Assembly (NCBI GenBank): GCA_011056645.1
Contig: DSEL01000185.1
Coordinates: 2,595 to 66,594 of the forward strand
DNA length: 64,000 bases
Source: Candidatus Sediminicultor quartus
GTDB lineage: Bacteria; Atribacterota; Phoenicimicrobiia; Phoenicimicrobiales; Phoenicimicrobiaceae
Direction of reading: 5' to 3'
The position numbers were made by a program, and so were the translations under genes. The notes under the pieces are model-generated. The model was given only the letters and a program-made list of their open reading frames with translations. It had not been told where the DNA came from and searched no databases. The stretch's first letter is position 1, and each line of letters begins with the position of its first letter. Positions 6,197 to 54,153 of the stretch are shown piece after piece.

Positions 6197-6460
6197 CTAT
6201 CCGCCTGAAATCATAGGCAAAATTATTATTTCATCGCCATCATTAAGAATGGTATTCTCTTTCTTTAGTTGATTAATTGACCTATTATTGACCATAACAA
6301 TTCCTGTAGACACTACATTTTTATATTCTATCTGATATTTATTATTAAGTACTTTAAATACATCCTTAACATTTACTTTATCGTTCTTAAAGAATAGTTC
6401 TTCTTTGGAATGTCCACTAATCTTTTTAAAATCCAGAAAATATTTTACGGTAATCTTCAA
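6197..6460 (-). CDS. MoaD/ThiS-family small sulfur-carrier-like protein
   Basis: 87 aa, ends in the diglycine ...PMISGG. TTG start with AAGGTGAG SD. Lies immediately downstream of the AOR gene. Confidence 0.6.
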   Translation of the reverse strand: MKITVKYFLDFKKISGHSKEELFFKNDKVNVKDVFKVLNNKYQIEYKNVVSTGIVMVNNRSINQLKKENTILNDGDEIIILPMISGG

Positions 6461-9558: not shown

Positions 9559-9594
9559 AATTTTTCCTCACTTTTTTCCTAACTTTTTTATATC

Positions 9595-20852: not shown

Positions 20853-20854
20853 TT

Positions 20855-21574: not shown

Positions 21575-21629
21575 AATGAATTACCTCTTTGGTTAAAAAT
21601 ATAAATTATAAAAAAGAAAAATATTTACT

Positions 21630-23126: not shown

Positions 23127-23295
23127 ATTACACCTCATCCTTCCTTACTTTAATAAAGTAATTAAAACTTTATTCAGTAAATGGAATTTTGAAATTATAT
23201 TAGATGAATAAAACTCATAAATAACTTATTGTATTACCGATCTTATCATTACGCCTTCAGCGTTATCTTCTTTAATATCTATATTCTAATTACCT

Positions 23296-24285: not shown

Positions 24286-24633
24286 GGGAATTTCTTCTAC
24301 ATCAATTATGTTCCTACCTTTATAAATTGCAGCTAATATTTTTTTTCGCCCCCTCTTAATTGAATAATAAAAAACGATAATTTAAGGAATTTCTATACTA
24401 AAATTTAGGGAATACTAAAAAGCAAATATATCTATAATTACATTACCACAATACATAATGAGCTAGACCCAGTACTTTAGAAGCATCTTAAGGTTAAAAT
24501 GATGAATGATTATCTTTTTAATTGATACTGATCCATTATTGTTTGAGTCTATCTGTGTCAACATCTTCTTTATTTATTAAATGACCATAATCCATAAAAC
24601 TTTCAATGGTAAATTTTACAGCTTTCATTTCCT

Positions 24634-26148
24634 TCATATACAAATATCTTCTTTTTTATCCCAAACAAGCGATCTCTTAACAGCTCTTTTCCATCCAGCG
24701 TATAATTCTTCTCTCCTATCTTCTTTCATTTTCGGTTCGAATACTTTTGATAACTTCCATTGTTTTGAAATTTCTTCCTTATTCGCCCAGAAACCTATTC
24801 CGAGACCGGCTAAATATGCCGCACCCAATGCTGCCATCTCGGTAACTAATGGCACTTCAATAGGTATACCAAGTAAATCGGATTGAAATTGCATTAGAAA
24901 GTCACTATTAGTTGCTCCACCGTCTACTCTTAATGATTTTGCATTTATACCAGAATCTACTGTCATTGTATCAAGTACGTCTCTTGTCTGATATGCTATA
25001 GCTTCCAAAGCACTCCTTGCGATATGCTCTCTACTAGTCCCCCTGGTAATGCCTATTATCAAACCTCTCGCATACATATCCCAATACGGAGCACATAATC
25101 CGGTAAAGGCTGGAACAAAATATACTCCTCCTGTATCTGCTACTTTTTCTGCAAGCAAGTCACATTCATGAGCAGTTTTAATTATTTTCAATCCATCCCT
25201 TAACCACTGGACTGTTGACCCACCCGCAAACACAACGCCTTCAAGTGCATACTCAACATTATTATTAACCACCCAAGCAATATTGGTGGTCAGACCATTC
25301 TTTGAAAATAAAACCTTTTCTCCAACATTCATCATTAATGCTAATGCAGTGCCATAAGTATTCTTTGCCATTCCCGGCTGAAAGCATACCTGTCCAAAAG
25401 TAGCTGCATGCTGGTCACCAGCATCACCCGCAATAGATATTTCTTCCCCAAAAAATACATCCTTATTCGTTGTCGCCATTATTCCACTTGAAGGTTTTAA
25501 CTGCGGTAAAATATTTACAGGAATATCCAAAATATCAAGCAACTCTTTATCCCACTCAAGAGTATGTATATTTAAAAGCATTGTTCTTGATGCATTTGAA
25601 TAATCCTCTACGTGATAAGCCCCCCCACTTAACTTCCATATAAGCCAGCTATCTATGTTACCCATGCATATTTTTCCTTGCGAAATTTTTTCCTTAACGC
25701 CAGAGACATTTTCAATAATCCATTTAATCTTCGTTCCAGAAAAGTATGCATCGATTAAAAGACCAGTTTTGTTTTTGACAGTATCTTCATATCCTCTTGT
25801 TTTTAACTCTTCACATATACTTGCAGTCTGGCGGCTCTGCCAAACAATTGCATTATAAACAGGTAGCCCAGTATCTTTATCCCACAATACAGTTGTCTCT
25901 CTCTGGCAGGTAATGCCTATCGCTGCTATTTCGCTTGCCTTAACGCCACCTTTTTCGAAAGCTTCCTTTGTGCAAACCATAGTTGTATCCCAATATTCCA
26001 TTGGATCATGTTCAACCCAACCAGGGTTTGGATATATCTGTCTTATCTCTCTATAAGCTTTTGAATGAACTTGGCCTTCATGATTGAATAGAATAACCCG
26101 TGTACCTGTTGTACCTTGGTCAATTGCCATTATATATTTTTTTTCCAT
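24634..26148 (-). CDS. glpK: glycerol kinase (FGGY family), paralog 2
   Basis: YIMAIDQGTTGTRVILF; closely similar to paralog 1 (roughly 70% identity over matched blocks by eye). Confidence 0.9.
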   Translation of the reverse strand: MEKKYIMAIDQGTTGTRVILFNHEGQVHSKAYREIRQIYPNPGWVEHDPMEYWDTTMVCTKEAFEKGGVKASEIAAIGITCQRETTVLWDKDTGLPVYNAIVWQSRQTASICEELKTRGYEDTVKNKTGLLIDAYFSGTKIKWIIENVSGVKEKISQGKICMGNIDSWLIWKLSGGAYHVEDYSNASRTMLLNIHTLEWDKELLDILDIPVNILPQLKPSSGIMATTNKDVFFGEEISIAGDAGDQHAATFGQVCFQPGMAKNTYGTALALMMNVGEKVLFSKNGLTTNIAWVVNNNVEYALEGVVFAGGSTVQWLRDGLKIIKTAHECDLLAEKVADTGGVYFVPAFTGLCAPYWDMYARGLIIGITRGTSREHIARSALEAIAYQTRDVLDTMTVDSGINAKSLRVDGGATNSDFLMQFQSDLLGIPIEVPLVTEMAALGAAYLAGLGIGFWANKEEISKQWKLSKVFEPKMKEDRREELYAGWKRAVKRSLVWDKKEDICI

Positions 26149-26280
26149 CTATTCTCCTCCTTAAAATTATTTAATGCTATTTTTGGGCAAGTTTACATTC
26201 ATATATGGGCAAACTCATGGTATTCTGCCCTTCGATTTTATAAAATTATTAATATTGTTTCTTTTTATCTTTGTTACTTT

Positions 26281-27333
26281 TTATAAATCCGGAATAAATA
26301 AAACTTTATTAAATATCTCTTTTTTATAGTACATCATTTCAAAAAATTCTTTACAATCCTCTAACTTTGCTCGGTGGCTTATTATTGGCTTCACTTTAAT
26401 TTTTCCTTTATCCATGAAATCTAAAGAGGATTTCCATTCATTAACCGGAAGAGGAACAATAGATGAATTCCACGAACCAATAATAAATAATTCTCCTCGG
26501 AGTATCTTATTCACTTCTTTACTGGGAAGCAACAGATCATCGTAAGATATTCCGCAATAAATCACCTTACCCATTTTACTTGCTGATTGAATTGCTTGTA
26601 ATTGAGTTATTTTGTTTCCCGCTAACTCAATAACAATATCTGCTCCTTTGTTATGGGTGTAATCCATTATTGCCTCAATAACATTGTTATTTTTTGCGTT
26701 AATTGCTAAATCGACTCCTATTTTTTTAGCTAAATCTAATTTTTCCTGAAAAATATCTACGGCAATAACTTCGGAACATCCTAAAATTTTTAACCATTGT
26801 ATGGCAATAAGTCCAATAGCCCCTAAACCAAAAACTACTGCTGATTGGCCAGCATTAATATTTGCTTTTCCTATGGCATGTAATGCCACACTTACCGGAT
26901 CAGTCATTGCGCCACTTTCATAATCTACATTTTCAGGTAATTTAAGAAGATTGCTTTCCTTTACTACAATATATTCCGCCATTGCACCGGGAATACGAGA
27001 GCCATAATATAGATAATCATCACAAAGATTATATTTTCCTATTTGACAAAATTCGCACTTTCCACAAGGAATTAATGGCATGGCTGTCACTTTATCTGAT
27101 ACCTTAAAAGAAGAAATGCTTTTACCTATCTCCACTACTTCACCACTAAATTCATGGCCGATGATAATCGGCATTTTGTGAGCTCCCTTAACCATTACTC
27201 TTGGTATATCAGATCCGCAAACCCCACAAGCTTTAACTTTTACAAGTACTTCATTTGAATCTTTTATTTCAGGAACTTCTGTCTCCACGCAACTTAGGTT
27301 TGCGGGAGCAAATAATGTTACTGCTCTCATCAT
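26281..27333 (-). CDS. zinc-dependent alcohol dehydrogenase (MDR family), paralog 2
   Basis: CGVCGSDIP...GHEFSGEVVEIGK, structural Zn site CGKCEFCQIGKYNLC, GLGAIGL NAD motif. Confidence 0.85.
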   Translation of the reverse strand: MMRAVTLFAPANLSCVETEVPEIKDSNEVLVKVKACGVCGSDIPRVMVKGAHKMPIIIGHEFSGEVVEIGKSISSFKVSDKVTAMPLIPCGKCEFCQIGKYNLCDDYLYYGSRIPGAMAEYIVVKESNLLKLPENVDYESGAMTDPVSVALHAIGKANINAGQSAVVFGLGAIGLIAIQWLKILGCSEVIAVDIFQEKLDLAKKIGVDLAINAKNNNVIEAIMDYTHNKGADIVIELAGNKITQLQAIQSASKMGKVIYCGISYDDLLLPSKEVNKILRGELFIIGSWNSSIVPLPVNEWKSSLDFMDKGKIKVKPIISHRAKLEDCKEFFEMMYYKKEIFNKVLFIPDL

Positions 27334-27402
27334 TGTTACTTATTCTCCTTATTAAGTACATTTTAATTTAATTGATTACTTTTTAAATATTAAAATATTG
27401 AT

Positions 27403-28074
27403 TTAATCAAAGAATTTTTTAATAACTCTGGCTAAACATTTGTTACCTACATTTCCGGCATTGGCTTCCTCTATATCTAAATGAAGTGCTAATTTACTTT
27501 TAGAAGAAACCCTGATTACTACATCCTTATAAATAACGCCATGCTCTCCTGATACTTCCACCTTGACTCGATCTTCATCTTTCACACCATAATGTTCTGC
27601 ATCTTCAGGAGCCATATGAATATGCCGCGCGGCTCGAATAGCTCCCTCTGAAAGAGCCAAAACGCCTTTTGGTCCGATAAAAATGATAGGTGGAGAGCCT
27701 TTTATATTCCCCGATATTCGAGTAGGAAGGTCTAATCCTAAAAAATAGCCATCGGTAATAGATAATTCTGCTTGCGTATATTCTCGCAAGGGTCCAAGAA
27801 TTCTTACCTTTTCAATCACTTTCATATTTGCGCTAACTATTCCCACCTGTTCATTGCTGGCAAATTCTCCGGGCTGAGATAAATCACGTAATTTAGTAAG
27901 CTTATAATCCTTTCCAAATAAAACATCCAGGGAATCTCTGGTTAAATGAACATGATGATTGGAGATCTCTACGGGAATAGAAAAAAGATGAGATGATTCT
28001 TTTTTCGGTTTTATTTCTTTATAAATCGTTTCAGTTATCATATCTACAAGTTTTTTATATTCTTGCTCTTCCAT
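27403..28074 (-). CDS. pduL: PduL-type phosphotransacylase (BMC-associated)
   Basis: 223 aa with two PduL/EutD-type repeats, and the signature SNHHVHL in repeat 1 and HIHMAPEDAEHYG in repeat 2. About 25-aa charged N-terminal leader (MEEQEYKKLVDMITETIYKEIKP) before the first repeat. Confidence 0.8.
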   Translation of the reverse strand: MEEQEYKKLVDMITETIYKEIKPKKESSHLFSIPVEISNHHVHLTRDSLDVLFGKDYKLTKLRDLSQPGEFASNEQVGIVSANMKVIEKVRILGPLREYTQAELSITDGYFLGLDLPTRISGNIKGSPPIIFIGPKGVLALSEGAIRAARHIHMAPEDAEHYGVKDEDRVKVEVSGEHGVIYKDVVIRVSSKSKLALHLDIEEANAGNVGNKCLARVIKKFFD

Positions 28075-28121
28075 TTTTTATCACCCTCGACTCATCTATC
28101 CTTTATCATATCAGAATAATA

Positions 28122-28937
28122 TCAGACACTGACAATCTTTACACTGGCACTACAACCCAGCCGGGTTGCCCCAGAGTGAATCATTAATAAAGCATCTTCG
28201 TAAGTACGGATCCCACCCGCTGCTTTAATTCCCATTTTAGGACCAACAGTCCTACGAATCAGAGCAACATCATGGGCAGTAGCTCCGGCGGTAGAAAAAC
28301 CGGTAGATGTCTTTACAAAATCAAAACCAACTTTTTTTACCAATTGAGAAGCTATTACTTTTTCCTCGTCTGATAATAAACAGGTTTCAATTATCGCCTT
28401 GGTAATCGTGGTCTTCCTGCAAGCCGTAAATACTGCTCTTAGATCAGCTTCTACCGTCTTTAGATCACCGTTTCTTAAAGCACCTACATTAATTACCGTA
28501 TCTATTTCACCAGCTCCGTTTTCTATAGCATTACGCGTCTCGTAAGCTTTGGTCCTGCTGTCTGTTGCCCCTAACGGAAATCCCACAACAGCACAGACCT
28601 TGACTCCACTTCCCCGTAATTTTTTAGCACAATAAGACACCCAGGAAGAATTAACACAAACCGTACAAAAACCATACTGAACGGCTTCTTCGCATAATTT
28701 TTTCACCTGAGCTTCTGTTGCGTCAGGCTTTAATAAAGTATGGTCAATATATGGTGCAAGGTCAGCAGGTGTATTAATTTGTATATTGCAACCCACAGAA
28801 GAACCCTGTATGTTTTTATTACCCAAATCAGATTTAAAAGAAAGATTATCAGAAGAAGATGTCTTCTTTAACTTTGATATTATTTCATCACTAATCTTAT
28901 CTATCAACTCTTTTTTATCCATCTTATCTATATCCAT
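28122..28937 (-). CDS. deoC: deoxyribose-phosphate aldolase (DERA) with N-terminal encapsulation-peptide-like extension
   Basis: The DERA core ([11 protein letters not shown]...VCVNSSWV...GFPLGA...VKTSTGF...IKAAGGIRT) is preceded by about 35 extra residues. These form an amphipathic helix [15 protein letters not shown] plus an S/N/G-rich linker. AAGAGGT SD. Confidence 0.85.
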
Positions 28938-28964
28938 AATTTTAAACCTCTTCTTTTCATATTT

Positions 28965-29528
28965 TTATTTATTTCTTTCTGCAGCCATTATTTTATTAAC
29001 TCTTTTCCAATGTCTTCCACCAGCAAAAGAAGTTTCCAGCCATAGTTTTACCATTTCGCGTAATTCATCCGGAGTGTGTAACGGGCCACCTAAAGTTAAA
29101 ACATTTGCATTATTATGTTCTCTGCTGTTTATAATCGTTTTTTGGTTATAACACAGGGCAGCTCTTATCCCTTTAACTTTATTACAAACCATTGAGGAGC
29201 CAATTCCGGCTCCATCAATCATAATTCCTCTATCGCATTCCCCGCTAGTCACCTTCCTGGCCACTTTAAGGGCAAAATCAGGATAATCGACGCTATCCTT
29301 ACTAAAAGTTCCGACATCTGTCACTCGATAACCAATGGTACGCAAATAATCTCTAATAATTTCCTTGGCCTCAAATCCACCATGATCTGACCCAATAGCT
29401 ACACAACCCACTTTGTCCCGAACATTATTGGGGATAGGTTGGATTTTTTCAGGGGCAGCGGTAGAATATAATCCACTCACCACATTCTGGATAATTTTTA
29501 TTCTATTTATACTATCAGTCATTTTCAT
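28965..29528 (-). CDS. rpiB: RpiB/LacA/LacB-family sugar-phosphate isomerase with N-terminal encapsulation-peptide-like extension
   Basis: RpiB core (VAIGSDHGGF...GIMIDGAGIGSSMVCNKVKGIRAA...ANVLTLGG) starts near residue 38. N-terminal INRIKIIQNVVSGLY helix plus Pro-rich linker. Confidence 0.85.
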   Translation of the reverse strand: MKMTDSINRIKIIQNVVSGLYSTAAPEKIQPIPNNVRDKVGCVAIGSDHGGFEAKEIIRDYLRTIGYRVTDVGTFSKDSVDYPDFALKVARKVTSGECDRGIMIDGAGIGSSMVCNKVKGIRAALCYNQKTIINSREHNNANVLTLGGPLHTPDELREMVKLWLETSFAGGRHWKRVNKIMAAERNK

Positions 29529-29545
29529 TAACCTTATTCTATACT

Positions 29546-29809
29546 TTAATTAATTGTATCAACAATTCCTACAATCATTGTTCTAATCGGGGCTGTCGAA
29601 TTATTTATAATCAAACGAGAAGAATTTCCTTCATCAATCACCAGGACCGTATCTCCCACCCCTGCCTGGACAGTATCCAAAGCCAAAACACTTTCTCCTT
29701 GGAGTTCTTCTTGGTCATTCACCGGCTGAACGATTAAAATCTTATATCCTTGATAAATCGGAAGCTTTATAGTTGAAACTACATTACCAATTACTTTGCC
29801 TAAAATCAT
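29546..29809 (-). CDS. BMC vertex (pentamer) protein, EutN/PduN/CcmL family (BMC-P) 1
   Basis: 87 aa, MILGKVIGNVVSTIK...VQAGVGDTVLV...MIVGIVD; canonical BMC-P. Confidence 0.85.
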   Translation of the reverse strand: MILGKVIGNVVSTIKLPIYQGYKILIVQPVNDQEELQGESVLALDTVQAGVGDTVLVIDEGNSSRLIINNSTAPIRTMIVGIVDTIN

Positions 29810-29811
29810 AA

Positions 29812-30081
29812 TTATTCTCCAATATTTACCTGATCAACTATACCCATAATAGTCAAATCAGAAGGGTTGAACCAATTTTTAAGTCCCAAAGCTGCCTCTC
29901 TGCCACCTTCATAAAAAACAATGTCATTTATACCTGCCTGAACCGTATCGCAAGCTACTACAGGATCACCAATTTCTTCTAATTTTTCATTAAGAGGTTG
30001 GAGTAATAACAGTTTTATATCTTGAAAAGATTCTACTTTCTGGGTACAAACAACATTACCAATAACTTTCCCTAATTTCAT
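29812..30081 (-). CDS. BMC vertex protein, EutN/CcmL family (BMC-P) 2
   Basis: 89 aa, MKLGKVIGNVVCTQK...VQAGINDIVF...IMGIVD. Confidence 0.85.
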   Translation of the reverse strand: MKLGKVIGNVVCTQKVESFQDIKLLLLQPLNEKLEEIGDPVVACDTVQAGINDIVFYEGGREAALGLKNWFNPSDLTIMGIVDQVNIGE

Positions 30082-30144
30082 CTCTATCCTCCAGACAAAA
30101 AGCTAATAAAAAATAAATTAATCGATAGTAAATAATCGTTAGTA

Positions 30145-30165
30145 GGACAGGCCTCTCGCCTGTCT
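30145..30165. repeat. GC-rich hairpin GGACAGGC-ctctc-GCCTGTC in the aldDH to BMC-P intergenic region
   Basis: 7-8 bp GC stem with 5-nt loop, followed on the plus strand by TTTAGTTTTTATT. Its orientation is that of a plus-strand terminator although the flanking genes are minus-strand. Confidence 0.4.
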
Positions 30166-30179
30166 ATTTAGTTTTTATT

Positions 30180-30238
30180 GTAGGGATCGGATTTATCCGA
30201 CCCGTTTTCATTGCGGGTTCGATGAATCGAACCCCTAC
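30180..30238. repeat. 59-nt structured repeat, copy A (cloverleaf-like: outer stem GTAGGG/CCCTAC enclosing three hairpins)
   Basis: GTAGGG-at-CGGATttATCCG-a-CCCGttttcattgCGGG-GTTCGAtgaaTCGAAC-CCCTAC. Shares tagggNNNGGATTTATCCGANCCGTTNTCATTGNGG...AATCGAACCCCTAC with copy B at 34090-34149. Both lie in the only two sizeable intergenic gaps of the BMC operon, each just 5' of a BMC-P gene. Confidence 0.6.
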
Positions 30239-30268
30239 GGAAAGAAATGCTTATATGATTAAAGTAAT

Positions 30269-31714
30269 TTAAACAATTCTAAAATAACCAACCAAGACAC
30301 AACGTCTTTCCCTGGTAAAGGTTCTTGCTCGGGTTAAGCCCTCCCCAGTAGGAGTAGCGATGGTAAAGGAAGTATAACCGGCACCTCCAAATCCCAAACC
30401 ACTATAATTGGGTCCATTTTTTATAAAGAGAGAACAGTTCATCAATTTAGCCATCCTGGAAAGTGTAGCAATATTCCGGGAATGAATAGAAGCAGTATGC
30501 CTGAAATTATGCTCACACTGCACGGCAAAATCTATGGCTTCATCGACATGGCTAAAGCGAACCAGGGGAATCACCGGTAAAAGCTGTTCAGTCCAGACCA
30601 AGGGATGATAAGGATCTACTTCGCAAAGTAATATTTTAGTTTGATCAGAAATATCTAGTCCTATATCCCGGGCGATTATACTGGCATTTTTCCCCACATA
30701 TTCTTTATTTGGTGCCCCTTCATGCCCGGGTTTGCCCGGGTCAGCGATGACTAATTTAGTAACCTTTTCAATCTGATCGTCTTTTAATTCATAAGCGCCA
30801 TTTTTTATCATTTCCTCTTTTAATTTATCGGTAATTTGAGAAACGGCTAAAATCTCTTTCTCACATATACAGACAATATTATTATCAAATCCTGCTCCGA
30901 TCACAATGTCGCGACCGGCTTTAACTAAATCGGCAGTTTCATCAACCACACAGGGAGGATTTCCGGGACCAGCCGCAATGACTTTCTTGTTACTGTTCAT
31001 AGCGGTTTTCACTACCGCCGGACCACCGGTTACTACCAGTAATCTAATTTTAGGATGTGTCATTAAAGTTTGGGCTGAATCAATAGTCGGATTAGCAATA
31101 GCACAAAGAACGTTGGGAGGACCACCGGCTTTTACAATCGCTTGATTGATCAAGGAAACAGTCAAGCAGGAACTTCTTTTTGCTGCAGGATGAGGATTAA
31201 AAACTACCGAATTCCCACCGGTAATCATACTTATTCCATTATTAATAACTGTAGAAGTAGGGTTGGTTGAGGGTATAATAGATCCAATAACCCCATAAGC
31301 TGCTCGTTCCATCAAGGTCATTCCATGATCATCGGAGTAGGCTGTAGGTTCGAGATCTTCTATCCCCGGTGTTTTTAAAGCTGCTAATCTATTCTTTTCA
31401 ATCTTGTCTTCTATTCTGCCAAAAGTTGTTTCTTCTACCGCTAATTTAGAAATTTCTTCCAGATGATCCATTATTATTTTGCGTATGCTCCGAATAATTT
31501 CTCTACGTTGATCCAGGGTTAATTTAATCAGTTCAAGATGGGCAGTCTCGGCAGCATCCACAGCAGCATTTATTTCTTCAAATATTCCATCCTGACCAGA
31601 AAAAGGCCTGTTTAACGAATCATTTGATATTGCTTTATCACTTTTTGTATCTTCTAATTTATTAAGTACGCTTTCAATGATTGATTTTAAATCTTTTTCG
31701 TTTATTTCCATCAT
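30269..31714 (-). CDS. CoA-acylating aldehyde dehydrogenase (PduP/EutE family) with N-terminal encapsulation peptide
   Basis: 481 aa ALDH-superfamily protein with catalytic Cys region. N-terminal helix EKDLKSIIESVLNKL plus linker precede the ALDH domain. Confidence 0.85.
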   Translation of the reverse strand: MMEINEKDLKSIIESVLNKLEDTKSDKAISNDSLNRPFSGQDGIFEEINAAVDAAETAHLELIKLTLDQRREIIRSIRKIIMDHLEEISKLAVEETTFGRIEDKIEKNRLAALKTPGIEDLEPTAYSDDHGMTLMERAAYGVIGSIIPSTNPTSTVINNGISMITGGNSVVFNPHPAAKRSSCLTVSLINQAIVKAGGPPNVLCAIANPTIDSAQTLMTHPKIRLLVVTGGPAVVKTAMNSNKKVIAAGPGNPPCVVDETADLVKAGRDIVIGAGFDNNIVCICEKEILAVSQITDKLKEEMIKNGAYELKDDQIEKVTKLVIADPGKPGHEGAPNKEYVGKNASIIARDIGLDISDQTKILLCEVDPYHPLVWTEQLLPVIPLVRFSHVDEAIDFAVQCEHNFRHTASIHSRNIATLSRMAKLMNCSLFIKNGPNYSGLGFGGAGYTSFTIATPTGEGLTRARTFTRERRCVLVGYFRIV

Positions 31715-31746
31715 TTACCACCTATGTGTAAATCTCTTTTTTATCT

Positions 31747-32301
31747 TTAATAAATAAAATAAGGTTTAATCTCCGGATGAGGGTTGGGGATAATGACCTC
31801 TTTACAAATCAGACCTTTCTCACTTATGGTCTTTACCGCTGCCCTGACTGCAGCTTCCACCTCGTCTATATTACCAATCATTTTAATATAAGATTTACCA
31901 CCCATCCCTGCAGCCAATCTAATCTCGTTAACTAAAACATTAGCAGTTTTGGCAGCTATATCGGCAGCCTCAATACTGGCAACAACTGAAAAAAATTCTA
32001 CTACAGCTACTGCATCCCAAATCTTACATTCAACCGTACCGACAATTGCCGGAATAATTTGAGAATGTAAATTGGGAATAAATAATTCATCAACGATATA
32101 ACCTTCTCCAATTTCCTTACCAGCGGTAAGGGAAGCATCAACTGCTGCCACATCACCGGTAAAAAGAATGACAAATTTTCCCGGACAAATCGTCCTGGCA
32201 TCTATTACTTTTACCGAGGCAGCTTTTACTATGCCGTCTAAAGCCTTTATTCCGACTGCTATACTGTTAAATTCTAATACTCCAAGAACGATTATATCCA
32301 T
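31747..32301 (-). CDS. tandem-domain BMC shell protein (BMC-T, PduT-like)
   Basis: 184 aa with two BMC (Pfam00936-like) domains. TICPGKF Cys is at the position of the PduT [4Fe-4S] ligand. Confidence 0.8.
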   Translation of the reverse strand: MDIIVLGVLEFNSIAVGIKALDGIVKAASVKVIDARTICPGKFVILFTGDVAAVDASLTAGKEIGEGYIVDELFIPNLHSQIIPAIVGTVECKIWDAVAVVEFFSVVASIEAADIAAKTANVLVNEIRLAAGMGGKSYIKMIGNIDEVEAAVRAAVKTISEKGLICKEVIIPNPHPEIKPYFIY

Positions 32302-32321
32302 ATCTTACCTATCTTTCATCA

Positions 32322-33644
32322 TTATTTTTTAATAATAATCTTTTGCTCGTCAATATAAATTATTTTACCTTTAATGCTCGCGTGTAACCGAGCACCCAAT
32401 TTCCCTTCAGGAATTTCTGCAATAAGATCACCCTCGTTTACTTGTTCATTAACTTTCACTACAGGTTTCGAAGGAACGCCCGTGTGTTGTTTGAGCAAAA
32501 TCTCCACCTGATCGGGATCATTTTCCATTACTGGTAATGGATGTCGATCATCCTCATCATACTTTTCTAATCTCAAGCGGTTTTTAATCCTCGAACTGGG
32601 TATTTTTCTGTAATCTTGCTGCTCTCTTGGACTTTCTTTTTTCTCCGAAAACTTGGCTTGATAGCCGGATACCAGAAGATTTTCCTTAATTTTTTGATTG
32701 ATAATGCGAGGGGATAATTCCATCGGACAAGCGAACACCTCGCAAAGCCCGCATTCACTGCATAGAAAAGCATTTTGAATCATTTCGTAAGGAATATCGA
32801 GTCCAAAGTTTATCTGTCTCATAATCTTATGGGGATAAAGCTCATGACCTAATAAATAACGAGGGCATAAGTCGGTACAATAACTGCATTGACAGCAAGC
32901 AGCTTTACTTTGCTTGATAATATATTCAATTCTTAAGGTCTTCCTTAAAACTAAGGGGTGGTCTCGAGGTAAAACTAAAATCCCGGTGGTAATTTTAGTG
33001 ACCGGTGAATCAAGGTCAAAGACTACTTTGCCCATCATAGGTCCCCCCACAATAACTACAAAATCTTCCAAGGTAGGTTCACAAAGATTGATAACTTCCC
33101 GGAAAGAAGTACCAATCCGAGCAATGATGATACTCGGCTTTTTTACTTCTCCTATGCAGGTGAGTGTCCTTCTGGTTACTGCATTACCTTTCTCTGCCAT
33201 AGACACATTTCTCAAGGTCTCTACATTATTTACCAAACAACCTATATCCGGAGGAATACCCCCTTCCGGAATAACTTTACCGGTAATTTCCTGTACCAGA
33301 ATGAACTCATCACCAACTGGATAATAATCCTTAAGAAGGAATAGTGATATATTTTTCTTTCCATTTATAGCTTTGTTTAATTTTCCCGCAATAGAAAGGT
33401 ATTTTTTTTTCAGGGCAATGACCCCTTTTTTTGCACCAGTCAATTGTATAATTAACTCTAAACCTTTTATTACCTCTTCTCCCTGTCTTTCAATAATATA
33501 TTTATCATTATAAAGAAGAGGTTCACATTCTGCTCCATTTCCAATGACTACATCATATTTATTGGCAACTTTAATATGAGTAGGAAAACCAGCACCGCCA
33601 GCTCCTACTACTCCCATATCTCTGAGCACATTTTCAAGTGCCAT
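32322..33644 (-). CDS. PduS/RnfC-like flavoprotein with two [4Fe-4S] ferredoxin-type clusters
   Basis: GVVGAGGAGFPTHIK nucleotide/flavin motif; two CxxCxxCxxxCP motifs (CCQCSYCTDLCP, CSECGLCEVFACP); C-terminal barrel-sandwich-like segment GDLIAEIPEGKLGARLHASIKGKI. Confidence 0.75.
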   Translation of the reverse strand: MALENVLRDMGVVGAGGAGFPTHIKVANKYDVVIGNGAECEPLLYNDKYIIERQGEEVIKGLELIIQLTGAKKGVIALKKKYLSIAGKLNKAINGKKNISLFLLKDYYPVGDEFILVQEITGKVIPEGGIPPDIGCLVNNVETLRNVSMAEKGNAVTRRTLTCIGEVKKPSIIIARIGTSFREVINLCEPTLEDFVVIVGGPMMGKVVFDLDSPVTKITTGILVLPRDHPLVLRKTLRIEYIIKQSKAACCQCSYCTDLCPRYLLGHELYPHKIMRQINFGLDIPYEMIQNAFLCSECGLCEVFACPMELSPRIINQKIKENLLVSGYQAKFSEKKESPREQQDYRKIPSSRIKNRLRLEKYDEDDRHPLPVMENDPDQVEILLKQHTGVPSKPVVKVNEQVNEGDLIAEIPEGKLGARLHASIKGKIIYIDEQKIIIKK

Positions 33645-33674
33645 AAATTATTCCCCTTCTTATAGACTATTCGC

Positions 33675-33962
33675 CTATTTTTTAAAAACAATTTTATTGT
33701 ATGCTTCTACCATATCGACAATTCCTACAATGACGCAATCGACTGGTTTTTGATGGGTAATTTCCGTCTGTCTAGCAGAACTTCCCTGAGAAATAATCAC
33801 TATCTCTCCTACTCCTACTCCGACCAGATCTACAGCAACCAGATAATTACCATCTGTTTGCCCTTTATGGTTGCAAGTTTGAACAAGAAGACACTTCTTT
33901 CCTTTTATTCCTTCATCCATTTGGGTGCTGACTACAGTCCCCACAATTTTACCAAATATCAT
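33675..33962 (-). CDS. BMC vertex protein, EutN family (BMC-P) 3
   Basis: 95 aa, MIFGKIVGTVVSTQ...VGVGVGEIVIISQGSSARQ...VIVGIVD; closely EutN-like. Confidence 0.85.
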   Translation of the reverse strand: MIFGKIVGTVVSTQMDEGIKGKKCLLVQTCNHKGQTDGNYLVAVDLVGVGVGEIVIISQGSSARQTEITHQKPVDCVIVGIVDMVEAYNKIVFKK

Positions 33963-34089
33963 CTTAACCTCTTTTTATTAATTTCTTAAAATTTTAGGAA
34001 TAAACAAACTAGACGTTATTGAATAATCGAGCCCTTAGTGGTTAGTTTAAAATTGAAAACTTTTTGCTATAAATTAATGTTTTTTTAAA

Positions 34090-34149
34090 TAGGGGTTGAA
34101 TTTATCCGATCCGTTCTCATTGTGGCGGGTCCAATAAATCGAACCCCTA
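34090..34149. repeat. 59-60-nt structured repeat, copy B
   Basis: TAGGGGttgAATTTATCCGAtCCGTTcTCATTGtGGcgggtccaataAATCGAACCCCTA. Conserved 5' 35 nt and 3' 14 nt versus copy A; the outer stem can extend (GGGGTTgAATTT / AAATcgAACCCC). Confidence 0.6.
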
Positions 34150-34178
34150 CAAAAAAGGAAGATCTCTAAACAATTTTA

Positions 34179-34469
34179 TTATTTTTTGTATACATATTCT
34201 CCTTTAATATCTATAGAATCAACGATAGATATTATTGTTGCATCACTCGGTTTTCCTTCGGTAGTTGCCGTCATCCTGGAACTACTTCCGGCCACAAAAA
34301 AGACTATTTCCCCTAATCCTGCTCCCACACTATCCATTGCTACCAGATAATCGCCTTTCCCCTGCATGTTGGTAGGATTAATTTTCTCCAGAAGTAAAAA
34401 TTTTATGCCCTCAATTTTCGGTTCTTTCCTGGTTGATACCACTGTACCCACTACTCTTGCCAGTATCAT
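34179..34469 (-). CDS. BMC vertex protein, EutN family (BMC-P) 4
   Basis: 96 aa, MILARVVGTVVSTRK...VGAGLGEIVFFVAGSSSRM...IISIVD. Confidence 0.85.
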   Translation of the reverse strand: MILARVVGTVVSTRKEPKIEGIKFLLLEKINPTNMQGKGDYLVAMDSVGAGLGEIVFFVAGSSSRMTATTEGKPSDATIISIVDSIDIKGEYVYKK

Positions 34470-34500
34470 ATTTTTTCCTCCCGTATGATGAATGTATCAA

Positions 34501-34824
34501 TTAATCAGTACTCATTTTATCTTTTTTGTTTTTACTCGGACCTCTGCCCAAAGGGAGAACACTATCTACATTACTGTGTGGCCGTGGAATAATATGAACA
34601 GAAATTACTTCACCAACTTTTTGGGCTGCTGCATTTCCGGCATCAAGGGCAGCTCGAACAGCTGCTACATCGCCACGTACAATAGCAGTATTGTACCCAC
34701 CACCAATTTTTTCATAGCCTACCAAATCTACCCTGGCTGCCTTTAACATCGCATCTGCTGCCTCTACCATTGCTACAAAACCTCTTGTTTCGATCATTCC
34801 CAATGCATCTGTATAAACGTCCAT
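34501..34824 (-). CDS. BMC hexamer shell protein (BMC-H, PduA/EutM-like) with about 15-aa C-terminal tail
   Basis: [53 protein letters not shown]...VHIIPRPH is a near-canonical PduA core. First gene of the operon; AGGAGG SD. Confidence 0.9.
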
Positions 34825-34880
34825 CTTTCTTTTTACCTCCTTAATGTTATTTTTCTGACAAATTTTTTTACTTTTTTAAC

Positions 34881-34909
34881 ATTTTAACATACTATTTTTT
34901 TCATGTCAA
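34881..34909 (-). promoter_or_regulatory. near-consensus sigma-70 promoter of the BMC operon (TTGACA - 17 nt - TAAAAT with upstream TGn extended -10)
   Basis: On the minus strand, TTGACA is at 34909-34904, a 17-nt spacer follows, and TAAAAT is at 34886-34881, preceded by TGt. It lies 57 bp upstream of the BMC-H ATG (34824) and 28 bp upstream of the AGGAGG SD. Confidence 0.65.
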
Positions 34910-35040
34910 TACTTTTTGGTTATTTTTTATAAAACAATTAATATTTTTTATAATTTTTAAATCTCTGCAAAGATATTTAAAAATTGTTGTTGGGTAGGCT
35001 GAAAAATTAACGGATTACTAAAGAAGTTAAAATAAAAAAA

Positions 35041-36231
35041 TTATCTTTTCCTTTGAATCTTTTCCAAATATCCACACTCTCTAAAAAATTCAAGAGGATT
35101 TAAAGGAACCTTCATCTCCTCTCTTACTTTAAATAAAAGAGGTGTTATATCAGTTTCAAAGGCTTCAGTGAGCACCTTCTCCGCCATAATTATATCTTCA
35201 TCTTGTTGGAATTTTTTCAAAGATCTTCTATCTACAATGAGAGCTTTTGCATAGATTTTATGAATATTTACAACACTTTGGATCATTTCTTCAATTTTTG
35301 GCTTAAGATTGTGACATTGGTCTATCATATAAGCTATGTTGGCTTTTATTCCATCCTCTTCTGCTGATACCAGTTCATTGAAAATAAGGAAAAATTCATA
35401 AGGATTTATAGAGCCCACAGTTAGGTCATCGTCAGCATATTTTTTATTATTAAAATGGAATCCTCCCAACTTTTCCTCATCTAAAAGATAGGCTACTATC
35501 TGTTCTATATTGGTGCCTAAAGCGTGATGTCCTAAATCAACCAATACCATCGCCCTATTCCCTAATTTTAAACACAAATTATATGCGCTACCCCAATCAG
35601 GTATATCGGTATTATAAAAAGATGGTTCAAAAAATTTATATTCTATAAGTATTCGCATATCATCTGGTAAATTATCATAAATTTCTTTCAAACTATCTTC
35701 TAATCTATGCTTTCTCTCTCTTATATCATCCTGCCCGGGATAGTTGGTTCCATCGCCTAACCAGAGAGAAATATCCTTGGATTTAAGTGTCTTGGCAATA
35801 TTGATACACTCCAGAACATGATTGATAGCTTTTTTTCTCACTTTTTTATCAGGATTACAAAGACTCCCCAATCTATAATCCGGGTCTTGAAATAAATTGG
35901 GATTTATAGCTCCCGGTTTTATTCCCAAAGAAAGAGAATATTCTAAAAGAGCATGCCAATTATCAGTGATATCCCAAGGGATATGTAAAGCTATAGACGG
36001 ACATATGCCGGTGATCTTATGTACTTCTGCTGCATCCTGAATTTTTTCCCTTACACTATTAGCAGCTCCTTTTTGCTTAAAAATTGCAAAACGAGTTCCT
36101 GAATCTGAATAACCCCAACTTGGAGTTTCAATCTTTAATTCCGTTAACTTTTTCTCAATTTTACTTACATTAATTCCCTTCTCTTCCAAAGAGGATTTTA
36201 ATATTTTATAACTTGTTTTATAATCTCTCAT
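35041..36231 (-). CDS. rhaA: L-rhamnose isomerase-like sugar isomerase (RhaA family TIM barrel)
   Basis: 396 aa. N-terminal GINVSKIEKKLTELKIETPSWGY resembles RhaA GIDVEEALRQL...HCWQG. Later blocks IALHIPWD, LGIKPGAINPN, LVDLGHH and GGFHFNNKKYADDDL fit RhaA-family metal/active-site regions as recalled. Confidence 0.6.
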   Translation of the reverse strand: MRDYKTSYKILKSSLEEKGINVSKIEKKLTELKIETPSWGYSDSGTRFAIFKQKGAANSVREKIQDAAEVHKITGICPSIALHIPWDITDNWHALLEYSLSLGIKPGAINPNLFQDPDYRLGSLCNPDKKVRKKAINHVLECINIAKTLKSKDISLWLGDGTNYPGQDDIRERKHRLEDSLKEIYDNLPDDMRILIEYKFFEPSFYNTDIPDWGSAYNLCLKLGNRAMVLVDLGHHALGTNIEQIVAYLLDEEKLGGFHFNNKKYADDDLTVGSINPYEFFLIFNELVSAEEDGIKANIAYMIDQCHNLKPKIEEMIQSVVNIHKIYAKALIVDRRSLKKFQQDEDIIMAEKVLTEAFETDITPLLFKVREEMKVPLNPLEFFRECGYLEKIQRKR

Positions 36232-36291
36232 TTTAATCAGGATAAATAACCCTATTCCTCCTTTCTTTAGAATATATCTTTGTTTTCTGTT

Positions 36292-37245
36292 TTATTGAGA
36301 ATGATTCTTTAAAAATTCTTCCACTTCCTGGCGATAAGGCATAGCAGGAGCAGTACCAATTTTGGTTACATTGAGACTGGCAACAGCATTGGCAAAATAA
36401 GTCGCATCCACTAAATTCTTTCCTTCAGAAAGAGCAATAGCCAAGCCTCCATTAAAAGCATCTCCTGCTCCCGTAGTATCCACAATCTTTACTTCCTGGA
36501 AAGTAGGTACATGGGTAATCTTTTTAGAATTTACTACTAAAGCTCCTTCTTTACCCAGAGTAACCACCACATCTTTTACTCCAGCAGATATCATTTCTTT
36601 TGCAGCTTTTTCAGCTTCTTCAATTGTATTAACATTTCGATTAGTAATAAGCTCTAACTCACTTCTATTGGGAGTGATTAAAGATACTTTCTTTAAAATA
36701 TCTTTCTCTAATTTCTTCCCCGGAGCAGGATTAAGAATAGAAATAGTATGGTTAGATTTATACACCAGGCTTATAACATGTTCTACGATTTCCACCGGAA
36801 TTTCTAACTGCAGTAGTACTATATCTGCACTCATAATGAGATCTCGGGCATTTTCTACCAATTGAATATCTATTTCCATGTTAGACCCAGGAGCTACTAC
36901 TATCATATTTTCAGCAGTTTTATCATCTACTAAAATAAAAGCCATTCCCGTGTGTTGAGTTTTGCTTACCTTAAGATAGTCAATGTTGATCCTCTCTTTT
37001 ATAAAATTATTTCGGGCAATCTCCCCGAAATAATCTTCCCCTACACAACCGACGAAACAAACTTCGGCACCTAATCTTGCCGCCGCCACAGCTTGATTTG
37101 ATCCTTTCCCTCCAGGGCCTAATTTAAATGGCCCTCCCAACACAGTTTCTCCGTGTTTTGGAAGCCAGGGAGTTTTGGACATCAAATCAGTATTATAACT
37201 TCCCACAATTACAATCTTATTTTTTTTCAAACGAATCACCTCCAT
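36292..37245 (-). CDS. rbsK: ribokinase/PfkB-family carbohydrate kinase
   Basis: IVIVGSYNTDL, GGKGSNQAVAAARLGA, and DTTGAGDAFNGGLA anion-hole motif; 317 aa. Confidence 0.85.
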   Translation of the reverse strand: MEVIRLKKNKIVIVGSYNTDLMSKTPWLPKHGETVLGGPFKLGPGGKGSNQAVAAARLGAEVCFVGCVGEDYFGEIARNNFIKERINIDYLKVSKTQHTGMAFILVDDKTAENMIVVAPGSNMEIDIQLVENARDLIMSADIVLLQLEIPVEIVEHVISLVYKSNHTISILNPAPGKKLEKDILKKVSLITPNRSELELITNRNVNTIEEAEKAAKEMISAGVKDVVVTLGKEGALVVNSKKITHVPTFQEVKIVDTTGAGDAFNGGLAIALSEGKNLVDATYFANAVASLNVTKIGTAPAMPYRQEVEEFLKNHSQ

Positions 37246-53093: not shown

Positions 53094-53173
53094 ACTATTA
53101 CCCCTTTTAATTTAGTTCTAAGCAAAGAAAAATACTGATCAATCTTTTTTGACTTTTTTCAACTTAAATTACT

Positions 53174-53962: not shown

Positions 53963-54153
53963 TTTCCCTTCCCCCCTAGTGAATTGCTTTTTTGTACTTA
54001 ACCTTATATGCTGTAACGTCTTAAAAAAAAGTCCTTTTATTTGTAAAATATTTTCTAAAAGGAAACTACCTCTTATATGATCAATTTTCACTTTTTTGAA
54101 TAAATAAAATTGTTTTGATTATTTTCTCTTCATATATTTATTTAAAAATATAT

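Follow-up and report, generated by a model that had tools for sequence, protein, structure and literature searches.

A contiguous cluster of minus-strand genes, at positions 27403-34824 of the 64-kb stretch of DNA analysed in this study (the window), raises the question of which kind of bacterial microcompartment (BMC) it encodes and which chemistry that compartment would serve. The operon is of an already catalogued type, namely the sugar-phosphate-utilising (SPU) BMC of the Atribacterota. Atribacterial loci are founding members of the SPU class (Axen 2014, PMC4207490) and appear as SPU2 in a later catalogue (Sutter 2021, PMC8217296, Supplementary Data 2).

The operon comprises 11 genes, in the order BMC-H, two BMC-P, a PduS-like flavoprotein, a PduT-like BMC-T, an acylating aldehyde dehydrogenase (ALDH), two further BMC-P, an RpiB-like protein, DERA and, as the last gene, PduL. 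The same number was called on four public contigs by independent gene callers, and window proteins are identical to HER25104.1 (the PduS-like flavoprotein) and HER25129.1. These identities, like the names of homologues, point to the Atribacterota as the origin of the window, which derives from a MAG. All family calls were above the Pfam curated thresholds; PF00936, PF03319, PF06130, Aldedh, LacAB_rpiB and DeoC were all matched, and these searches recovered the complete set of shell and cargo proteins (one BMC-H, four BMC-P, BMC-T, a PduS/RnfC-like protein, ALDH, RpiB, DERA and PduL) named in the original prediction. The existence of a BMC operon, its families, promoter, N-terminal helices and rhamnose neighbours were thus upheld, but the claimed count of thirteen genes was not: genes 12 and 13 are probably two non-coding spacers (33963-34178 and 30082-30268) which hold repeat elements, and in which we found no operon-strand ORF of at least 20 aa.

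All operon features described below lie on the minus strand. The predicted promoter (34881..34909) consists of a -35 hexamer TTGACA (34909-34904), a 17-nt spacer and an extended -10 element TGTTAAAAT (hexamer at 34886-34881; the region reads TGnTAAAAT). With a score of 11/12 plus the TG extension, it is the top sigma-70-like site in positions 26000-36500 (10.5 kb), and it is kept in three related lineages (L207, L085 and L086) although their upstream genes differ, which agrees with the single near-consensus promoter proposed earlier. A ribosome binding site, AAGGAGG (34836..34842), precedes the BMC-H start codon within a conserved 5' UTR (...AATAACATTAAGGAGG) and is also kept in relatives. Five related lineages share the gene order, which extends as far as an A. 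laminatus-like locus.

The shell would be built of a BMC-H hexamer protein (107 aa, 34501..34824; PF00936, 106 bits; PRPH edge motif), a tandem BMC-T and four pentamer proteins. The latter are BMC-P1 (96 aa, 34179..34469; PF03319, 92.5 bits) and BMC-P2 (95 aa, 33675..33962; PF03319, 99.9 bits), which show 47% identity, and BMC-P3 (89 aa, 29812..30081; PF03319, 86.8 bits) and BMC-P4 (87 aa, 29546..29809; PF03319, 89.5 bits), which show 45%. The PduS-like NADH dehydrogenase (MNdh, 440 aa, 32322..33644; PF01512, PF13534 and PF13375) contains the FMN/NADH site GAGGAGFP and a pair of 4Fe-4S motifs of the CxxCxxCxxxCP type, and it ends in an RnfC barrel-sandwich domain. Its alignment with RnfC (7zc6_C) involves a circular permutation, which is the published MNdh architecture (PMC11626177). 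It adjoins the PduT-like BMC-T (BMC-T^SE, 184 aa, 31747..32301; two PF00936 domains), in which alignment to the PduT structures 3pac and 3n79 revealed a conserved TICPGKF segment and placed the pore cysteine, C39, in the CPGK motif, as expected for the claimed Fe-S cysteine.

Judging by these features, the two proteins represent the MNdh/BMC-T(SE) module for NAD+ recycling, already published and with experimental support from C. botulinum GRM1 (PNAS 2024, PMC11626177). It shares with that module and with Salmonella PduS/PduT the four-domain order with the C-terminal, circularly permuted RnfC domain, the two 4Fe-4S motifs, an adjoining tandem BMC-T with its pore cysteine in CP(G/S)K, and an operon devoid of an alcohol dehydrogenase bearing an encapsulation peptide (EP). 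It differs from them in BMC type and phylum.

The closest parallels of the operon as a whole are the SPU2 loci of Candidatus Atribacteria, with which it has in common DERA, an RpiB-type protein, an AldDH with an N-terminal EP, one BMC-H, the BMC-P triplet (with one extra copy, giving four), and a PduT-type BMC-T^S that has a cysteine in its pore and adjoins a PduS homologue. It also shares PduL with the loci of Atribacteria single-cell genomes (SAGs), which belong to the same phylum. The catalogue additionally lists a CcmP-like BMC-Tdp for typical SPU2 loci, whereas we found none in this operon or elsewhere in the 64-kb window. Other differences are the two REP dimers inside the operon and its location within a block of rhamnose and polyol catabolic genes, in contrast to the ParA/FtsZ-like...DeoR context of the closest relatives.

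EP-like N-terminal helices are present in the ALDH (481 aa, 30269..31714; PF00171; residues 7-20, nt 31655-31696), the RpiB-like protein (187 aa, 28965..29528; PF02502; residues 7-21, nt 29466-29510) and DERA (271 aa, 28122..28937; PF01791; residues 8-26, nt 28860-28916). Alignments of orthologues revealed that the helices are conserved and the linkers variable. Gene callers place the start of the RpiB-like protein two codons later. The PduL-type phosphotransacylase (223 aa, 27403..28074; PF06130, 230 bits) has a fourth helix, missed previously and likewise kept in orthologues (residues 6-21, YKKLVDMITETIYKEI, nt 28012-28059), ahead of a core which aligns to 5cuo from residue 31.

The statement that the first three helices are absent from housekeeping homologues was borne out by comparison with solved stand-alone proteins, which start aligning only after the extensions: at residue ~59 in DERA, 43 in RpiB (matching residue 3 of 3he8) and ~30-46 in ALDH. 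In an AlphaFold (AF2) model of DERA (mean pLDDT 83.6), a helix spans residues 8-26, residues 27-50 form a disordered linker, and the barrel begins at residue 57. Moreover, a comparison over 80 genome loci demonstrated that the DERA extension tracks the shell genes: all shell-linked DERA genes (24/24) have at least 54 residues of room before the barrel, in contrast to a median of 6 residues in the shell-less ones (n=32). A deoC paralogue without the extension is also located within the window.

EPs on SPU DERA, RPI, AldDH and PTAC have already been described (Dwyer, Sutter & Kerfeld 2024, PMC11585597), in a study of the SPU6 locus of Chloroflexi bacterium GWB2_54_36, the one SPU locus whose enzymes have been assayed in vitro. 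DERA of that locus was active on deoxyribose-5-P and a DERA-RPI complex was found, so the original description of SPU chemistry as experimentally unshown no longer holds. The two loci share a DERA with an N-terminal helix extension and the conserved D/K/K triad (D146, K180 and K209 here, invariant among orthologues), an RPI with an EP and the Cys66->Asp substitution, and an AldDH. The SPU6 locus differs in lacking PduS/MNdh and PTAC, in the C-terminal position of the AldDH EP and in the presence of BMC-Tdp; its DERA extension is ~70 aa long with two predicted beta strands, as opposed to ~55 aa in our DERA, where the model shows a single helix followed by a disordered linker. The cysteine replacement in our RpiB-like protein (IDGAG versus ICGTG in the alignment to 3he8) had not been noticed before. 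Cys66->Asp is common to all SPU RPIs, and the one assayed lacked R5P isomerase activity (PMC11585597); by analogy, this protein therefore probably serves as a scaffold and not as an enzyme.

Taken together, the domain content, catalytic residues, DERA model and 80-locus comparison support an SPU-type metabolosome with EP-like helices on its cargo. We place at roughly three in four the probability that this is an 11-gene SPU metabolosome operon of Atribacterota with one strong promoter, an oxidative deoxy-sugar-phosphate route and two insertions of REP/RayT-system repeats. The route we infer would proceed as follows. All 11 genes would be transcribed from the predicted promoter; a 2-deoxy-sugar phosphate (prototype deoxyribose-5-phosphate) would enter the shell of BMC-H, PduT-like BMC-T and four BMC-P paralogues, into which the amphipathic helices would recruit ALDH, RpiB, DERA and PduL. 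DERA, probably bound by the RpiB-like packaging scaffold, would split the substrate into glyceraldehyde-3-P and acetaldehyde; the trapped acetaldehyde would be converted to acetyl-CoA by the ALDH, and PduL would form acetyl-phosphate, recycling CoA. NADH would be reoxidised by MNdh, whose two 4Fe-4S clusters may pass electrons to the cluster in the BMC-T pore and thus out of the shell. Against this stand a published reductive model for Atribacteria, the BMC-Tdp that was not found, and neighbours other than nucleoside-salvage genes.

It is established enzymology that both DERA and acylating ALDH catalyse reversible reactions, and the opposite direction of the pathway has also been proposed. According to the model of Nobu et al. 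(2016), described for JS1/OP9 genomes as cited in PMC6281690, the ALDH turns acetyl-CoA into acetaldehyde as an NADH sink, DERA condenses glyceraldehyde-3-P and aldehydes to deoxy-sugar phosphates, RpiB rearranges these products, and the compartment stores carbon and balances redox in fermentation or syntrophy. The aldehyde:ferredoxin oxidoreductase gene needed by this model is present in the window (6480-8297). However, PduL (CoA recycling to acetyl-P) and MNdh (NADH reoxidation) suit the oxidative direction, SPU AldDHs group with acetaldehyde-oxidising EUT1 enzymes, and the RpiB step, in the form cited there, is removed by the lack of both the catalytic cysteine and isomerase activity in SPU RPIs (PMC11585597). 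We consider the reductive scheme unlikely for this locus. The ALDH itself has BMC enzymes (5jfl and 4c3s) as its closest solved relatives, and its catalytic cysteine aligns to that of 5jfl.

The source of the aldehyde could also lie in the neighbourhood, which consists of rhamnose and polyol genes. The flanking rhamnose genes were confirmed: RhaI (35041-36231; TIGR02635), directly upstream, and the RhaS binding protein (58073-59134) were above cut-off, and the window also contains a permease-RhaM fusion, a class II aldolase and a rhamnulokinase-like gene. The main aldehyde might accordingly be L-lactaldehyde from rhamnulose-1-P, as in PVM/GRM5 BMCs, with DERA being auxiliary. In the A. laminatus-like locus, the BMC operon is likewise preceded by genes for an FGGY kinase and a xylose-isomerase-like TIM-barrel protein (PF01261), and rhamnose, unlike ribose, supports growth of A. 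laminatus (PMC7736352). Yet the EP-bearing aldolase is DERA; the class II (rhamnulose-1-P-type) aldolase has no encapsulation extension when its likely start, M44, is used, and the YuxG-like SDR half (45078-46397) is a candidate cytosolic lactaldehyde dehydrogenase. Furthermore, we found no rhamnose genes near the operon in the closest relatives (L207, L085 and L086), so the adjacency looks like a lineage-specific block of sugar genes (~25 kb). Lactaldehyde as the aldehyde source, part of the original prediction, therefore remains speculative despite the nearby genes, and we regard a rhamnose-linked compartment as rather improbable. For the deoxy-sugar-phosphate route, pentose or deoxypentose phosphate could be supplied by the products of genes just upstream, which encode a ribokinase-family protein and a sugar ABC transporter.

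The two spacers each contain one REP dimer of ~60 nt. Dimer A (34089..34150; GTAG-tagged, head-to-head, REPIN-like; fold z-score -4.1) lies in the 216-nt spacer and occurs as the same insertion in L207, being absent in L085, L086 and L087. Dimer B (30180..30238), of the same family, lies in the 187-nt spacer beside a second palindromic module, GACAGGCGAGAGGCCTGTC (30145..30165), which also borders numerous REP copies on other contigs. Dimer B is missing from the orthologous spacers of L207 (90%) and L208 (87%), and thus the insertions are polymorphic among close relatives.

It may be asked whether these repeats have colonised a relic which no longer forms compartments. Shell genes, ALDH and RpiB have all been lost in a related MAG (L209), and electron microscopy of A. 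laminatus did not reveal BMC-like bodies (PMC7736352), which also counts against the metabolosome reading. Nevertheless, all ORFs (11/11) are intact with their catalytic and cluster-binding residues, the REPs are confined to spacers and disrupt no gene, and lineages of 62-92% identity share the gene order, the promoter and the EP helices; decay is therefore very improbable.

The only unreported feature of this SPU metabolosome operon is the two small mobile palindromic repeats between its genes. The family, found in at least 119 metagenome contigs, resembles the GTAG-tagged REPs/REPINs mobilised by RAYT (Di Nocera 2013, PMC3733652; Bertels & Rainey 2011, PMC3116915) in its 24-nt units (GTAG plus an 8-bp palindrome), the inversion of two units with GTAG outermost and a variable spacer, and the numerous extragenic copies, mostly between co-directional genes. 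No RayT was seen within the 64-kb window; a RayT transposase gene flanked by GTAG-REPs is present in another Atribacterota contig (L203), where the REPs form a sister subfamily differing in stem sequence. The dimers would thus represent an Atribacterota REP/RayT system, in a phylum missing from the 2013 list (PMC3733652), which has inserted into two intercistronic spacers and whose repeats would be carried in sense orientation on the operon transcript.

The bacterial microcompartment (BMC) operon of the window consists of eleven minus-strand genes, which were defined by listing open reading frames (ORFs) at two thresholds and by Pfam scans. In the order of transcription they encode BMC-H (34824-34501; PF00936), BMC-P1 (34469-34179; PF03319), BMC-P2 (33962-33675; PF03319), a PduS/RnfC-like flavoprotein (33644-32322; PF01512 and PF13375), a tandem BMC-T (32301-31747; PF00936), an aldehyde dehydrogenase (ALDH; 31714-30269; Pfam scan), BMC-P3 (30081-29812; PF03319), BMC-P4 (29809-29546; PF03319), an RpiB-type protein (29528-28965; PF02502), a DeoC-type aldolase (DERA; 28937-28122; PF01791) and a PduL phosphotransacylase (28074-27403; Pfam scan). 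All family matches lie well over the curated Pfam cut-offs. Genes for both shell folds (a single BMC-H, a single tandem BMC-T and four BMC-P, the latter sharing 37-47% identity pairwise) are clustered within 7.4 kb. The original prediction had named every one of these components, all of which were found by Pfam, but it had counted thirteen genes where we find 11. No ORF of at least 20 aa is present on the operon strand in either of the two long spacers, 34178-33963 (216 nt) and 30268-30082 (187 nt). This absence, together with the independent calling of the same eleven genes on four public contigs with an identical locus, rules out extra small genes at these sites.

The predicted near-consensus promoter (TTGACA at 34909-34904, a 17-nt spacer and TGnTAAAAT) proved to be the top sigma-70-like site across 10.5 kb, with a score of 11/12. 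The promoter and the 5' UTR (...AATAACATTAAGGAGG) are kept in three related lineages with different upstream genes, a conservation which may be read as phylogenetic-footprint support. No intrinsic terminators or internal promoters were predicted on the operon strand within the cluster, spacers included.

Our analysis supports the view that the operon encodes a sugar-phosphate-utilising (SPU) metabolosome with encapsulation peptides (EPs). The system is already known with respect to its class, its phylum, its EPs and its cofactor module. The SPU type was defined by Axen et al. 2014 (PMC4207490) from single-cell genomes including Atribacteria; these authors noted DeoC, RpiB, AldDH and PduL in SPU loci, and PduS only in those of Atribacteria. 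The survey of Sutter et al. 2021 (PMC8217296) distinguished seven subtypes among more than 280 SPU loci from 26 phyla and filed the Atribacteria loci under SPU2 (Supplementary Data 2), a subtype with a BMC-P triplet plus an extra copy, a BMC-T^S at times accompanied by PduS, and usually a CcmP-like BMC-Tdp. No double-stacking BMC-T gene is present in the locus or in the whole 64-kb window, where BMC-H and BMC-T^S are the only PF00936 proteins. The locus thus lacks the BMC-Tdp usual in SPU2, yet Atribacteria loci are catalogued there, and the assignment to SPU2 is provisional. As a microcompartment, the locus adds little: Atribacterota SPU loci belonged to the founding set of the class in 2014, and by 2024 publications covered its EPs, its inactive RpiB and the PduS/PduT electron relay.

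The window matches the JGI metagenome contig Ga0209206_10000007, and its PduS-like and FtsZ-like proteins are identical to HER25104.1 and HER25129.1 of a Candidatus Atribacteria MAG. DERA homologues at 62-93% identity carry the names Atribacteria, Caldatribacteriota or Atribacter laminatus. The gene order is kept in five related Atribacterota loci, designated L207 (90% DERA identity), L208 (87%; a partial contig starting inside the PduS-like gene), L085 (81%), L086 (75%) and the A. laminatus-like L087 (62%), the last of which carries an additional BMC-H and a triose-phosphate isomerase.

The enzymes agree with this classification in their details. The closest solved relatives of ALDH are the CoA-acylating BMC enzymes 5jfl (E 1e-138) and 4c3s (E 1e-128), with the catalytic Cys aligned, in keeping with the acylating activity originally ascribed to it. 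In DERA, D146, K180 and K209 are invariant among 13 orthologues, and the cores of solved structures are 59-60% identical to it; judging by motif, these residues correspond to E. coli D102, K167 and K201. In the BMC-type DERA homologues P0093, P0100 and P0113, the N-terminal helix is followed, ahead of the barrel, by a Cys-rich insert (C..C..C...; alignment columns about 65-100) that the DERA of the window lacks. The RpiB-type protein (PF02502 at 179 bits), whose gene adjoins that of DERA, has Asp in place of the catalytic Cys in its alignment to 3ph3 (IDGAG vs ICGTG), an active-site change that had been missed. In this it resembles all SPU RPIs, in which Cys66 is replaced by Asp; the SPU RPI that was tested had negligible R5P isomerase activity, yet formed a 1:1 complex with DERA, and an SPU6 DERA was active on deoxyribose-5-P (PMC11585597). 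With this SPU6 DERA/RPI work, in-vitro data exist for the SPU class (Dwyer 2024), and the earlier statement that its chemistry lacked an experimental demonstration is outdated for the class; it holds for Atribacterota.

The cofactor module was recognised correctly as well. The PduS-like protein has the FMN/NADH motif and two CxxCxxCxxxCP-type motifs, as foreseen for a two-cluster flavoprotein, and its Pfam domains (PF01512, a 4Fe-4S dicluster and a C-terminal PF13375) occupy positions 8-148, 249-311 and 376-436. Since its residues 4-309 align to RnfC 124-417 and residues 379-428 to RnfC 32-80, the order of the segments is swapped and the protein is circularly permuted relative to RnfC. The BMC-T gene begins 20 nt past the stop codon of the flavoprotein gene. 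Its product aligns to PduT structures along its full length and retains the Fe-S cysteine predicted for it, the pore residue C39 within TICPGKF, a CP(G/S)K motif. The PduS/PduT pairs of non-B12 BMCs have been renamed MNdh/BMC-T^SE, and functional assays, EPR and footprinting indicated that they regenerate NAD+, electrons being exported via three 4Fe-4S clusters; the same work described MNdh as circularly permuted relative to RnfC (PMC11626177). The pair encoded in the window shares with this module both the permuted domain order and the adjacent BMC-T with its CP(G/S)K pore cysteine.

N-terminal helices had been proposed for ALDH, RpiB and DERA, and these are indeed conserved upstream of the solved stand-alone cores. 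Solved stand-alone homologues begin to align at about residue 59 of DERA and at residue 43 of RpiB, and the alignment of ALDH with non-BMC AdhE-type enzymes begins at about residue 40-46. The core of PduL aligns from residue 31, and therefore PduL too has an extension, which had been overlooked. Across five Atribacterota lineages the helix of all four proteins is kept (DLKSIIESVLNKL in ALDH, IKIIQNVVSGLY in RpiB, YKKLVDMITETIYKEI in PduL); the linker differs between lineages in both length and sequence. AlphaFold, run on DERA with 13 orthologues, gave a model (mean pLDDT 83.6) with a helix at 8-26, a segment with pLDDT below 50 at 27-50 and the barrel from residue 57. The hydrophobic moment did not separate the EP helices from the background (0.51-0.67 in the EP windows vs 0.49 +/- 0.12, 90th percentile 0.65), so we relied on conservation, on position relative to the solved cores and on the link with shell genes.

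This link was assessed in a control set of 80 genome loci, obtained by a profile search of genome contigs with the DERA alignment; the search was permissive, so that among the matches listed housekeeping DERAs dominate and only two loci are from Atribacterota. Among these 80 loci, every DERA gene with a shell gene in the same locus (24/24) offers space for 54 residues or more ahead of the barrel, whereas the 32 listed DERA genes without a shell gene within 8 kb, which include those of Streptococcus, Bacillus and Clostridium, have a median of 6 residues. The exceptions are mostly Acidobacteriota-type MAGs, for which satellite arrangements are known (PMC8217296). In the window itself, the second deoC gene (20855-21574; TIGR00126 above cut-off) has no comparable helix. 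Since the extensions are not conserved in non-BMC homologues, the interpretation of the N-terminal helices as probable EPs stands. It agrees with the report of Dwyer, Sutter & Kerfeld 2024 (PMC11585597) that EPs or N-terminal extensions, which gene callers often truncate, occur on all SPU DERAs and all SPU PduL-type phosphotransacylases (PTACs), and on RPI and AldDH. The extension of the A. laminatus DERA was noted by Katayama et al. 2020 (PMC7736352), who did not see BMC-like bodies by EM. At position 3639-6258 of a related Atribacteria MAG locus (L209; DOTB01000042.1), the shell genes, MNdh, ALDH and RpiB are lost, and DERA and PduL come immediately after a DUF772 gene; this DERA has a decayed N-terminal helix (KKE-IDKNSNETMSESEKVP), which would fit a role for the helix only where a shell exists. 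The window offers a clean, complete and intact example with all four EP-tagged cargo proteins, usable for heterologous shell and targeting work.

The published SPU scheme is the best-supported reading of the chemistry of the operon. A deoxy-sugar phosphate would enter the shell, where DERA would release glyceraldehyde-3-P and acetaldehyde; ALDH would convert the latter into acetyl-CoA and PduL would make acetyl-phosphate, recycling CoA. MNdh together with BMC-T^SE would recycle NAD+, and the RpiB-like protein would act as a scaffold. A rival to this scheme is the model that Nobu et al. proposed for Atribacteria, in which the enzymes run in the reductive, condensing direction. An aldehyde:ferredoxin oxidoreductase gene (AFOR_N and AFOR_C; 6480-8297, minus strand) is also present in the window and bears on models in which aldehydes leave the compartment.

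Clues to the substrate come from the genomic context: a ribokinase, a sugar ABC transporter, rhamnose genes and the extension-less DERA paralogue near GlpK-like kinases. The ribokinase-family gene (TIGR02152, above cut-off) and the ABC sugar transporter are immediately upstream of the operon and could supply pentose or deoxypentose phosphate. The alternative, that the operon is linked to rhamnose and processes lactaldehyde, has real but limited support. RhaI is encoded directly upstream, and RhaS, a permease-RhaM fusion, a class II aldolase and a rhamnulokinase-like gene lie at 51-59 kb; the operon of L087 is preceded by an FGGY kinase and a xylose-isomerase-like TIM-barrel (PF01261) gene, and A. 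laminatus grows on rhamnose, not ribose (PMC7736352). However, the class II (rhamnulose-1-P-type) aldolase has no extension, and in the nearest relatives the operon directly follows a ParA-like/FtsZ-like/DUF772 trio, without rhamnose genes. An apparent 43-aa extension of the class II aldolase stems from an upstream GTG, the likely start being M44.

The rhamnose genes are located at 51666-59134 and 35041-36231 (minus strand) and at 59272-60036 (plus strand), with RhaI adjoining the BMC promoter; the set comprises the RhaS binding protein, an ABC ATPase, a permease, the permease-RhaM mutarotase fusion, the class II aldolase and a DeoR regulator. The rhamnulokinase-like kinase scores 490 bits vs a cut-off of 528, and half of a split YuxG-like SDR is found at 45078-46397. 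The trio, which encodes an ATPase of the ParA/MinD type, an FtsZ-like protein extended N-terminally by about 58 aa and a transposase-like DUF772 product, stands directly upstream of the BMC operon in four relatives (L207, L085, L086 and L209); the extended FtsZ paralogue was noted by Katayama 2020 (PMC7736352). In the window the same trio is at 60066-62898 (minus strand), so that about 25 kb of sugar genes separate it from the operon in this lineage. Directly downstream of PduL, the region 20046-27333 (minus strand) contains a tandemly duplicated module of a Zn-dependent dehydrogenase and a GlpK-family kinase (a 300-nt repeat at 74% identity, 22251-22550 vs 25273-25572), followed by the extension-less deoC and an SDR. 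Zn-ADH and FGGY genes are also found downstream of the operon in L087, and the module may be a clue to the native substrate.

The only unreported feature that we found in the operon is a pair of repeats in its two long spacers. Both spacers hold the same element of about 60 nt on the operon strand (34150-34089 and 30238-30180), and these are its only two copies in the window. As RNA, the elements are folded much more stably than shuffled controls (z = -4.1 and -4.8). When metagenome contigs were scanned for the exact pattern, at least 119 matched and gave 100 unique copies, and all 100 of these, among the matches listed, share a dimer architecture with a variable spacer. Unit 1 reads GTAG+GGGTTCGA-TTCA-TCGAACCC; the inverted unit 2 reads GTAG+GGGTCGGA-TTTA-TCCGACCC (also written GGGTCGGA-TAAA-TCCGACCC+CTAC). 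The spacer between them (TTT, CAATGAAAA, TAAATAAG and others) is clamped by G...C. Two stem positions distinguish the units, and in both cases the compensating change lies inside the same unit, so the selected structure is a pair of hairpins and not one long hairpin. A cloverleaf-like fold is, from the same within-unit compensation, better read as two REP hairpins. A riboswitch, a known sRNA and a tRNA-like element were rejected, as Rfam gave no match to the spacer elements at gathering score or at E<=1, and ARAGORN found no tRNA-like element in the spacers. The elements match the short (20-40 nt) GTAG-tagged imperfect palindromes, present as two inverted units, which define GTAG-tagged REP head-to-head dimers (Di Nocera 2013; PMC3733652), and by their sequence we identify them as dimers of this kind, or REPINs, which makes them a new representative of an element type already known. 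A full-text literature search for Atribacter together with 'repetitive extragenic palindromic' found no publication.

The copies are extragenic: among the matches listed, only 11/115 de-duplicated copies overlap a stop-to-stop ORF of at least 100 aa, and between co-directional ORFs 46 are in sense and 12 in antisense orientation (p = 8e-6). A second palindromic module (GACAGGCGAGAGGCCTGTC, 30165-30145 in the window) often occurs beside REP dimers, on either side, in many loci, which suggests BIME-like mosaics. The insertions are polymorphic among close relatives. L207 shares the first element (34089-34150) and has unrelated low-complexity sequence at the site of the second (30180-30238), L208 lacks the second element, and L085, L086 and L087 have short spacers with neither; a diverged copy is also present in L209. 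The ALDH-to-BMC-P3 spacer contains different low-complexity repeats (TAGTTAG..., GAGATACGA...) in L207 (8664-8857) and L208 (2854-3220), and is 21-35 nt long in more distant lineages; it seems to be an insertion hot spot.

A RAYT regular expression found no match in the window or in the other repeat-bearing loci (738 kb). With a RAYT-like ORF of another locus (L054) as the query, phmmer detected a 208-aa Y1 transposase in L203, a contig of Ca. Infernicultor aquiphilus (Atribacteria), at 8681-9307 on the minus strand. This protein (PF01797, 28.4 bits vs a cut-off of 23) has the HUH and Tyr motifs and is named 'REP element-mobilizing transposase RayT' by JGI. GTAG-REPs of a sister subfamily (GTAGGGGCGTATTGCATACGCCC) flank its gene on both sides (8600-8670 and 9330-9570), and a dimer of the subfamily found in the window is 2.6 kb from it, at 6004-6061. 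An apparent REP-flanked segment in another locus (L173) is not a transposase, but an inverted duplication or an assembly artefact.

These data led us to consider that an undescribed GTAG-REP/RayT system of Atribacterota has colonised the operon and that its hairpins split the transcript into three dosage classes, thereby tuning the stoichiometry of shell and cargo, a proposal we regard as improbable, at roughly 15%. The sense-oriented hairpins would serve as intercistronic RNA elements, either 3'-end stabilisers or attenuators, and the classes would be BMC-H with BMC-P1, BMC-P2 to ALDH (with MNdh and BMC-T between them), and BMC-P3/4 with RpiB, DERA and PduL. One possibility, by analogy with REPs in E. 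coli operons, is that the hairpins stabilise the upstream mRNA segments. The proposal is compatible with the data because of the 46:12 sense bias, the lack of internal promoters and terminators, and the retention of one insertion in the relative with 90% DERA identity. The sense bias could equally result from transposition being strand-specific in genomes whose genes are strongly biased to one strand, a bias seen in the window.

REP polymorphism inside a BMC operon can be used to ask whether REP hairpins set the stoichiometry of multi-protein assemblies. If confirmed, these elements would extend GTAG-REP/RayT systems to Atribacterota.
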